Of a stretch of 16,143 nt of DNA, positions 9,138 to 9,588 are shown in pieces (within the stretch, counting starts at the first letter, position 1; each line of letters opens with the position of its first letter). The notes under the pieces were generated by a model. The model was given only the letters and a program-made list of their open reading frames with translations. It did no database searches and was not told the origin of the DNA. The position numbers and the translations under genes were made by a program. Source of the stretch: a virus (taxonomy: Duplodnaviria; Heunggongvirae; Uroviricota; Caudoviricetes); the IMG/VR virus record IMGVR_UViG_2660238511_000011. The stretch is one strand, 5' to 3'.

Positions 9138-9184
9138 AACAACGTGGAACAACCACGAACAAATAATTTACAAAAAATAACAAA
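9138..9184 (+). promoter_or_regulatory. Copy B of the AACAACGTGGAACAA motif with about 10-bp-phased AACAA repeats, overlapping a candidate late promoter on the minus strand
   Basis: AACAA units at 9138, 9148, 9158, 9169 (TACAA) and 9179. On the minus strand a candidate promoter reads TTGTTC (9142..9137), 16-nt spacer, TATTTT (9120..9115). Confidence 0.45.
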
Positions 9185-9202
9185 AAGCCGGATTGCTCCG
9201 GC
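9177..9202 (-). terminator. Intrinsic terminator R1 (GCCGGA-GCAA-TCCGGC plus U-tract) after the cassette gene
   Basis: Perfect 6-bp GC-rich stem with a 4-nt loop, followed on the minus strand by TTTTTGTTATTTTTT. The 23-nt core (9182-9204) is identical to the copy at 9545-9567. Confidence 0.7.
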
Positions 9203-9222
9203 TGTATGTGCTGTATGGGTGC

Positions 9223-9447
9223 TCAGTCTCTGATCCCTTTCAGAAATTCTATCAATGCATCTGTCTGTTCAGGATTTACTGCCAGCATTTCACCGGATAG
9301 CGCGCAACGAACAAAACCATGATGATCCTTTTCAATCAGCGCCCCCGTTTCCAGAAATGCGCGGTAATCAGTGATATTCATCGTCTCCATGTTGTCAGCA
9401 TGGTATTTATCACGCTGTTTAAGTATCTCATCAAATTTCATCGGCAT
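9223..9447 (-). CDS. Hypothetical protein, 74 aa, single-gene cassette between two identical terminators
   Basis: ATG at 9447 preceded by GAGGAA at a 6-nt spacing. Translation MPMKFDEILKQRDKYHADNMETMNITDYRAFLETGALIEKDHHGFVRCALSGEMLAVNPEQTDALIEFLKGIRD. The ORF track's longer version starts at 9525. Confidence 0.5.
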   Translation of the reverse strand: MPMKFDEILKQRDKYHADNMETMNITDYRAFLETGALIEKDHHGFVRCALSGEMLAVNPEQTDALIEFLKGIRD

Positions 9448-9542
9448 TGCGTTTTCCTCTGTTGTGTCTGTTTGTTTCAGATAGTAACTATGCCGGACCG
9501 TGACGAAAAGCCAGTAGTGCTCCATACCGTTTCAAATGACGC

Positions 9543-9565
9543 AAAAAAAGCCGGATTGCTCCGGC
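9543..9565 (-). terminator. Intrinsic terminator R2, identical hairpin to R1, with a 7-U tract
   Basis: GCCGGA-TTGC-TCCGGC preceded on the plus strand by seven A (seven U on the minus-strand RNA). It lies 24 nt after the stop of the 53-aa gene. Confidence 0.7.
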
Positions 9566-9588
9566 TGCGTGGTGTGGTTCTGATATTC

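Follow-up and report, generated by a model that had tools for sequence, protein, structure and literature searches.

A small polymorphic gene between two identical predicted terminators at the early-to-capsid junction of an EcCIEDL933-like capsid-forming PICI

The stretch of DNA analyzed here (the window, 16,143 nucleotides of IMG/VR record IMGVR_UViG_2660238511_000011) was compared by megablast with complete Escherichia coli genomes, and the annotation of the matches was read. It represents an EcCIEDL933-like capsid-forming phage-inducible chromosomal island (cf-PICI) at the phoQ site, with a phoQ flank (1–1461) of 96% identity. The packaging module is 96–98% identical to that of EcCIEDL933, and the whole segment from this module through the cassette examined below (5665–9567) is about 97% identical. 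The homology to EcCIEDL933, which itself carries the cassette, ends exactly at 9567. The genes discussed here lie on the minus strand and read from high to low coordinates. The early genes encode an integrase, a helix-turn-helix (HTH) regulator, an Icd-like protein, a DUF4222 protein, a primase, the products of two small open reading frames (ORFs) and a PerC-like protein, and they are followed by a gene for a 74-amino-acid protein, p74. After p74 come the genes for an HK97-type major capsid protein, prohead protease, portal, head closure, connector, HNH, a small ORF, TerS, and TerL. As the first-pass annotation had proposed for a satellite, the cassette forms a unit of its own where the early (replication) and structural operons meet.

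The cassette is bounded by a 23-nt sequence, AAAAAGCCGGATTGCTCCGGCTG, said at the outset to occur identically at 9182–9204 and 9545–9567. Exactly these two copies were found in the window; there are no further ones at up to three mismatches, and 200 dinucleotide-preserving shuffles produced no match. The upstream copy, T1 (9545..9567), follows the PerC(PchE)-like ORF, whereas the downstream copy, T2 (9182..9204), lies 18 nt past the p74 stop codon as a predicted intrinsic terminator directly 3′ of the gene. Both were scored as terminator-like on the minus strand in a consensus scan and consist of a 7-bp GC-rich stem (AGCCGGA/UCCGGCU) with a GCAA loop, followed by a U-tract. Their folds reach −14.1 kcal/mol for T2 (z −4.3) and −15.7 kcal/mol for T1 (z −3.8), and none of 200 shuffles was as stable, so that the strong terminators claimed at first reading stand as a prediction. 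T1 would stop the transcripts of the early operon, and T2 those of p74, keeping p74 transcription out of the capsid operon. Another repeat, at 2457–2473, lies inside a coding region and was dismissed as a chance match. A 37-aa “trigger factor” coding sequence (CDS), which RefSeq places over T1 in relatives (9488–9601, minus strand), has no family match, is frameshifted in EDL933 and 86-24 and is probably spurious.

Between the two copies p74 (9223..9447) is the sole sensible ORF. Its product starts with MPMKF (MPMKFDEILKQRDKYHADNMETMSINDYRAF...), and a GAGGA motif lies 7–8 nt 5′ of the ATG. The identical 225-bp CDS is annotated by RefSeq in near-identical genomes (WP_001132078.1, in strain STEC1587), and one 74-aa gene with a good ribosome-binding site is therefore confirmed. 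A 100-aa version of the ORF (9223–9525) was set aside; it extends into the upstream region and its start differs from the annotated one. The short upstream region claimed for the gene is real (9448..9544, 97 nt, with GAGGA near its 3′ end) and is conserved among the E. coli alleles, but it offers no good match to a sigma-70 promoter: nothing was found at the scan threshold in 9448–9544, and the best candidate by eye agrees with the consensus at 7 of 12 positions. The same interval contains no iterons and no significant RNA structure (z +1.05). The GC content of p74 is 43%, in comparison with 50–56% in the neighboring genes. Its 13 nucleotide alleles in E. coli show a ratio of nonsynonymous to synonymous polymorphism (pN/pS) of 0.12–0.15, with none disrupted or containing an internal stop. 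Thus, p74 is a real and selected protein of about 8.6 kDa (calculated mass 8.56 kDa), and it belongs to a family which is acidic throughout (isoelectric point, pI, about 5).

Islands were found in two states. Filled islands possess two copies of the terminator, 354–364 bp apart, and empty islands possess one. In the alignment, the empty state equals the filled one minus exactly one repeat unit, and the flanking BLAST segments overlap only across the terminator. The unit is 363 bp long (upstream region, p74, and terminator) and lies directly after the terminator of the early operon, a placement which by itself produces the two identical copies. The frequency of the two states was assessed in 5,426 complete E. 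coli genomes, using the best place per genome and coverage thresholds. The capsid-leader flank was found in 360 genomes and the junction of leader, T2, and p74 in 216, that is, about 60% filled and 40% empty; a spread sample agrees. Among IMG/VR contigs, islands of the HK97 type were 11 filled and 11 empty, those with a capsid/decoration module were about 8 filled and 23 empty, and none of the other types was filled. The presence of the cassette therefore varies at conserved terminator copies, which answers the comparison of related islands that had been suggested.

The flanks of empty islands (e.g., L004 and L006) are 98% identical to those of filled ones, and p74 is thus cleanly absent from close relatives. 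Furthermore, a single left-flank cluster (3% distance) contains 15 filled and 10 empty islands, and right-flank clusters are mixed as well (4/8). The sharing of flank haplotypes between the two states indicates that the event has been recurrent, or that it was spread by recombination. The 23-nt direct repeats could mediate precise loss or re-acquisition of the unit by slippage or homologous exchange, and this would account for the recurrent polymorphism. In contrast, the proposal of a cargo slot with varying content has to be abandoned. Wherever two copies lie 354–364 bp apart, the enclosed gene is p74 (17 of 17 IMG/VR loci and all E. coli loci examined, i.e., L001–L003, L005, L007, and L024), and the only alternative between these boundaries is the empty state. 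This is a one-gene on/off polymorphism and not a diverse cargo slot. Since intact-looking empty islands exist (L006) and the Klebsiella cf-PICI vB_KppS-Ant (LR881103.1), which was recovered from induced particles, has no p74 homologue, p74 is dispensable. The first-pass annotation had also named what would speak against its view, namely universal presence of the same gene at this position together with homology to a known structural or replication accessory protein. Half of this is found, namely wide conservation of p74 at its position, but neither universal presence nor a known homologue.

The distribution of the terminator itself was followed by an exact-pattern scan of IMG/VR (22-nt pattern), and the 120 contigs obtained were classified with tblastn, the queries being proteins from the present island and its relatives. 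In 98 contigs the terminator belongs to a recognizable island of this group, mostly as a single copy, and with few exceptions the gene preceding it there is the final one of the early operon (PerC, SSB, the small ORF hyp83, or primase). Beyond it, at least four unrelated capsid modules are found across E. coli PICIs: the HK97-type module of cf-PICIs; a small ORF with major capsid, head decoration, and TerS; a protease–capsid fusion with TerS; and a 308-aa capsid with TerS. For instance, L005 and L007, compared by pairwise BLAST, are 94% identical from T2 toward the early genes but share no sequence on the side of the capsid genes. Homology blocks between islands start or end exactly at the terminator copies, with mosaic joints at both. 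PICIs and cf-PICIs are known to exchange left halves (PMC10085698), and the joint between L005 and L007 fits this. We conclude that a large group of E. coli PICIs closes its early operon (replication/SSB/PerC) with the 23-nt hairpin as the standard predicted terminator, which marks the joint to the capsid module.

A third, slightly diverged copy is located in L005 (1728–1750; E. coli O157:H7 F1273), just before terS within the capsid/decoration/TerS module of another PICI type. The remaining 22 of the 120 contigs (L028, L033, L037, L133, and 18 others) carry the pattern without any similarity to the island proteins and fall into several unrelated groups, where about 0.02 matches would be expected by chance; one of them (L133) has two copies 3 kb apart. 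Four IMG/VR islands of other E. coli PICI types with the same early region (L034, L042, L048, and L094) encode a ClpP-like protease of about 637 aa fused to the major capsid protein, plus TerS, and each of their capsid modules is preceded by an ORF of 64–80 aa which looks ribbon-helix-helix-like by eye.

In the respective search for protein families, p74 matched phrog_1957 (PHROG 1957, no annotated function) over its full length with an E value of 2.4e-40. Pfam gave a sub-threshold match only (DUF1398, E 0.097), NCBIfam nothing, and the PADLOC models no match at E <= 0.01. The AlphaFold2 model, with a mean predicted local distance difference test (pLDDT) of 86, consists of three helices, three strands, and a C-terminal helix, and its fold had no match in the PDB or BFVD libraries searched. 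The statement that the 74-aa protein has no recognizable family is thus upheld, apart from the functionally unannotated PHROG 1957. The structure prediction and remote-homology search that had been called for yielded this model and this PHROG, but no known fold or functional family. The nicking endonuclease N.BspD6I, obtained in a PDB profile search with a whole-sequence E value of 0.0025, was rejected at a domain i-Evalue of 0.46, and kinship to the origin-adjacent ORF of the same island (10062–10340) was discarded at an hhalign probability of 0.1%.

A word-indexed search with p74 retrieved E. coli sequences only (64–99% local identity). The exhaustive HMMER search gave 22 relatives and added proteins of 76–96 aa with 33–46% identity, and the family shares the pattern ..EYR..L...AFF.iDHHGF.R..LSGE.lAtN.EQlD.LIE.L. 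From species-representative genomes, 15 homologue loci were recovered. In eight of them a replication gene (primase or RepA helicase) lies on one side of the homologue and an HK97-type capsid gene on the other, with the complete cf-PICI packaging module after the latter. Seven genera are represented by these eight loci, that is, Enterobacter, Kluyvera, Serratia (2), Leclercia, Phytobacter, Pectobacterium, and Gilliamella, and a homologue is also present in two fragmentary loci of Erwinia psidii. The homologues in satellites of other Enterobacterales are about 40–47% identical to p74. In the eight cf-PICI loci, the 200–240 nt 5′ of the homologue are packed with iterons, an architecture of replication origins, and a hairpin lies 3′ of it. 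In other Enterobacterales the homologue comes first after the origin of replication, with the HK97-type capsid gene downstream of it. The synteny of the family in cf-PICIs of other genera shows that p74 is an old gene of the lineage and not recent cargo. No homologue was found by tblastn in 50,697 GenBank phage records, and the members of PHROG 1957 appear to derive from satellites which were called as prophages.

Outside E. coli, seven of the eight loci (L009–L015) have variable ORFs of 77–257 aa next to the homologue, filling a gap of 0.6–1.6 kb before the capsid gene. Six of these loci have them on the reverse strand, and Pectobacterium on the forward strand. In the Gilliamella locus (L016) the gap measures only 0.26 kb and contains none. 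Nine reverse-strand gap ORFs were compared with the PADLOC models, and none matched (0/9). It looks as if the gap beside the homologue, rather than p74 itself, is the real accessory hotspot. More distant p74-like ORFs (41–46% identity over 51–57 residues) are located outside recognizable satellites in Janthinobacterium, Herbaspirillum, and Massilia (L020–L023). One of them (L020) adjoins a histidine kinase/response regulator pair (two-component system), and its other neighboring ORFs are without a family, so that this neighborhood gave no hint of function. Given these beta-proteobacterial ORFs, a strictly satellite-borne character of the p74 family may not hold.

Evidence for expression comes from the literature. 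By tandem mass tag mass spectrometry of O157:H7 grown without inducer, the “hypothetical protein EDL933_1785”, a 9-kDa protein of CP-933C, was detected in cell extracts and supernatants, and it was 5.35-fold higher in a clade 8 strain (PMC5120812). We infer that EDL933_1785 is p74 on three grounds. Its gi number equals that of pepT plus 14, which fits the gene count in the EDL933 annotation; its 9 kDa agrees with the mass of p74; and the reported upstream intergenic region of 406 nt corresponds to the 407 nt from SSB to p74 when the unannotated PchE (a PerC homologue) is ignored. Mutation of a “hypothetical gene 1792” has been reported to lower the transfer of EcCIEDL933 (10.1101/2022.09.08.507074). 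This gene was considered as p74 and rejected; counting along gi numbers and locus tags, p74 is 1785 and gene 1792 falls between HNH and TerS, seven genes downstream of p74, and the same offset is obtained with the locus tags of another strain. The mutagenesis of the packaging module covered nine genes (1786–1794 by this mapping) without 1785, so p74 was apparently outside the genes assayed.

The rest of the island conforms to a cf-PICI, a class defined in SatelliteFinder by 11 core components (PMC10085698). The left half of the closely related locus L001 encodes a tyrosine integrase, an HTH regulator (counted as the AlpA-type component), and a DNA primase family protein, and the window ORFs considered in this respect are 14914–16143(−) and 10629–12377(−). 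Capsid, prohead protease, portal, head–tail adaptor and connector, HNH, TerS, and TerL genes of its own are all annotated in L001 and L024 (96–98% identical). The annotations of L001 and EDL933 show no tail or lysis gene from phoQ to the integrase, and the island measures about 14.5 kb, within the 10–18 kb of the class. The first packaging-operon gene 3′ of the cassette is the HK97-type major capsid gene (7765..8922, minus strand), delimited from the L001 annotation and by comparison of translations. Its codon 276 (8095–8097) is TGA in the window versus TGG in relatives (W276*); a sequencing error aside, this copy of the island is probably unable to build capsids.

The last ORF before T1 (9589..9750, minus strand) encodes 53 aa and is a fusion of an SSB N-terminus with a PerC/PchE C-terminus. 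It results from a deletion of about 506 bp, which joined the first ~24 SSB codons in frame to the last ~30 PerC/PchE codons, as seen in alignment with the intact SSB and PerC of L003; Pfam detects PerC at residues 21–49 (E 1e-4). The deletion is shared with STEC1587, and MFDS1006657 has a comparable but out-of-frame remnant. Runs of N at 4561–4684 and 5640–5661 are scaffold gaps interrupting the packaging region. An exact 41-nt duplicate on both sides of the latter (5599–5639 and 5662–5702) looks like an assembly overlap. The window's copy of the island is partly decayed. Iterons (GGTAGACAG / CTGTCTACC, in both orientations) fill 10384–10621, between the primase gene and the next ORF and about 1 kb from p74, and this is probably the replication origin of the island. 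Finally, an exact 15-nt repeat, AACAACGTGGAACAA, is found at 1580–1594 (the island end beside phoQ) and at 9138–9152 (the capsid leader), within 35 nt of 77% identity; about 0.1 such repeats would be expected by chance.

The leader of the capsid/packaging operon (8923..9181, minus strand) contains a 17-bp hairpin (9013–9060) and a terminator-like hairpin followed by U7 (8927–8960), which buries the AGGA Shine–Dalgarno sequence just 5′ of the capsid ATG at 8922. The fold of 8923–9070 reaches −51 kcal/mol (z −4.1), and an inverted repeat covers the leader hairpin. Rfam gave nothing over 8700–9800 beyond chance microRNA-like matches to the hairpin. The leader flank is 98% identical between filled and empty islands. 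Judged from its fold, the leader could act in attenuation or translational control.

A comparable concept is the moron of Hendrix and colleagues, in which an extra gene has been inserted between the genes of lambdoid and HK97-like phages together with a promoter and a terminator of its own. T1 upstream, T2 downstream, and a capsid operon with a structured leader of its own would make p74 an insulated and separately expressed unit, similar to a moron. We hold it probable, with some reserve, that the two sequences are twin copies of the early-operon terminator and that p74 is an insulated, moron-like, and dispensable unit which was gained and lost through the repeats. The moron-type insertion proposed earlier survives in part: the unit is dispensable and predicted to be insulated, lies at a module junction, has a lower GC content, and behaves as a one-unit indel, but it is an old gene of the lineage and not a recent import. 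The foreign origin expected of a moron, unrelated to the backbone gene set, does not apply to p74, as homologues occupy the equivalent position in seven other genera. Several points weigh against the interpretation. The function of T1 and T2 as terminators is a prediction; no promoter was identified 5′ of p74, whose autonomous transcription is deduced only from the terminators and the proteomics; the identification with EDL933_1785 is indirect, although three independent checks are concordant; and cultures of O157:H7 also hold spontaneously induced cells. Moreover, the 60/40 ratio is approximate, since the counts depend on the best place per genome and on coverage thresholds, and the indel may be an insertion or a deletion.

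The main rival regards p74 as anti-phage immunity cargo, placed in an accessory hotspot before the packaging operon and expressed from the integrated island against non-helper phages. The regions before and after the cf-PICI packaging operon are variable and “expected to encode immune systems” (10.1101/2025.02.11.637232), and the polymorphism of about 60/40, the GC content below that of the neighboring genes, the inferred p74 protein (EDL933_1785) in uninduced cultures, and the variable reverse-strand ORFs that adjoin the homologue in other genera would all suit such cargo. Yet p74 resembles no known defense protein in PADLOC, Pfam, or NCBIfam, and its slot only ever holds p74. Orthologues at the same position across genera, with about 40–47% identity and under purifying selection, would also be unusual for defense cargo. 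In addition, EcCIEDL933, which carries p74, does not block helper phages, as the titers and plating of HK106 and HK446, the two phages concerned, were not reduced (10.1101/2022.09.08.507074). The anti-phage function suggested at first reading is therefore not borne out, and we regard this explanation as doubtful. A purely mechanistic alternative, in which the repeats are recombination sites of a dedicated mobile cassette (integron-like or miniature-element-like) and not primarily terminators, would explain why homology blocks begin and end exactly at the repeats and why the two island states differ by precisely one repeat unit. It is considered highly improbable. No dedicated recombinase is associated with the unit, only one cargo gene is known, and the repeats are direct and form canonical hairpin and U-tract terminators, of which most PICIs without the cassette keep one copy as the 3′ boundary of the early operon. 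Generic homologous recombination or slippage between 23-nt direct repeats would leave just such a pattern.

The position of p74 may alternatively be functional, with the protein acting as a regulator or accessory factor of the capsid operon (an activator, an anti-terminator on the leader, or an assembly chaperone). All cf-PICIs in which the homologue was found have it 5′ of an HK97-type capsid gene, p74 occurs in E. coli with only two of the at least four types of capsid module, and the leader, for which no sigma-70 promoter was found, has strong hairpins, one of them burying the Shine–Dalgarno sequence. On the contrary, an acidic family is ill suited to nucleic-acid binding, the leader is 98% identical with and without p74, and about 40% of the islands as well as the packaged Klebsiella cf-PICI do without the gene. 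Furthermore, no additional decoration proteins are present in the cryo-electron microscopy structure of the cf-PICI capsid (10.1101/2025.02.11.637232), reverse-strand ORFs and a bidirectional-looking terminator separate the homologue from the capsid gene in other genera, and p74 lies outside the mutated nine-gene packaging module. This second rival is accordingly thought quite unlikely. We do not think that p74 is a component of the capsid or a DNA-binding regulator: it is acidic, dispensable, without a homologue in the searched phage records, apparently made without induction, and absent from the capsid structure, and the leader is unchanged, which together speak against a role as capsid part, essential packaging factor, or classical DNA-binding regulator.

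Within the preferred reading of p74 as an insulated and dispensable unit, it is tentatively suggested that the protein binds a phage or host protein and modulates the interplay of satellite and helper or the maintenance of the satellite. A bolder version, to which we give little credence, is that p74 founds a satellite-specific family with an unmatched fold, made from the integrated island, which binds a helper-phage or host protein in order to set the helper range or to exclude competitors. If this were true, the presence or absence of the gene between its terminators would switch the compatibility of satellites and phages at the level of populations.

The cf-PICIs are a recently recognized and actively studied class of satellites, and their early-to-late junction and accessory genes are largely uncharacterized. 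Three things emerge from the analysis: a conserved terminator at which the modules of E. coli PICIs are joined, a simple mechanism, based on repeats, through which a single gene could be lost and regained repeatedly, and a conserved small protein which is probably expressed and has no counterpart in the searched phage records. Since natural isogenic-like pairs with and without p74 exist, its role is directly testable. The practical value is modest unless p74 controls helper range or immunity.

Compared with the PICI immune systems in accessory hotspots (Fillol-Salom et al., as cited by He et al.), p74 similarly flanks packaging genes and varies in its presence; it differs by having no PADLOC similarity, a slot with one gene or nothing, and no interference with helpers reported for EcCIEDL933. 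The prototype of the cf-PICIs is EcCIEDL933 (Alqurainy et al. 10.1101/2022.09.08.507074; He et al. 10.1101/2025.02.11.637232), with which the island shares the phoQ site, the packaging module, and the cassette; the p74 gene and its twin terminators are not described in these two preprints. The window's island is distinguished from EcCIEDL933 by a different replication module, the SSB::PerC deletion, and the nonsense codon in the capsid gene. With phage morons, p74 has in common that it is a single extra gene at a module boundary, has an intrinsic terminator 3′, and is absent from near-identical relatives, as well as a GC content lower than that of its neighbors and an inferred protein detectable without deliberate induction. 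Unlike morons, no promoter was identified for it, orthologues hold the same position in other genera, and it is flanked by two identical copies of the terminator with which the element closes its early operon.

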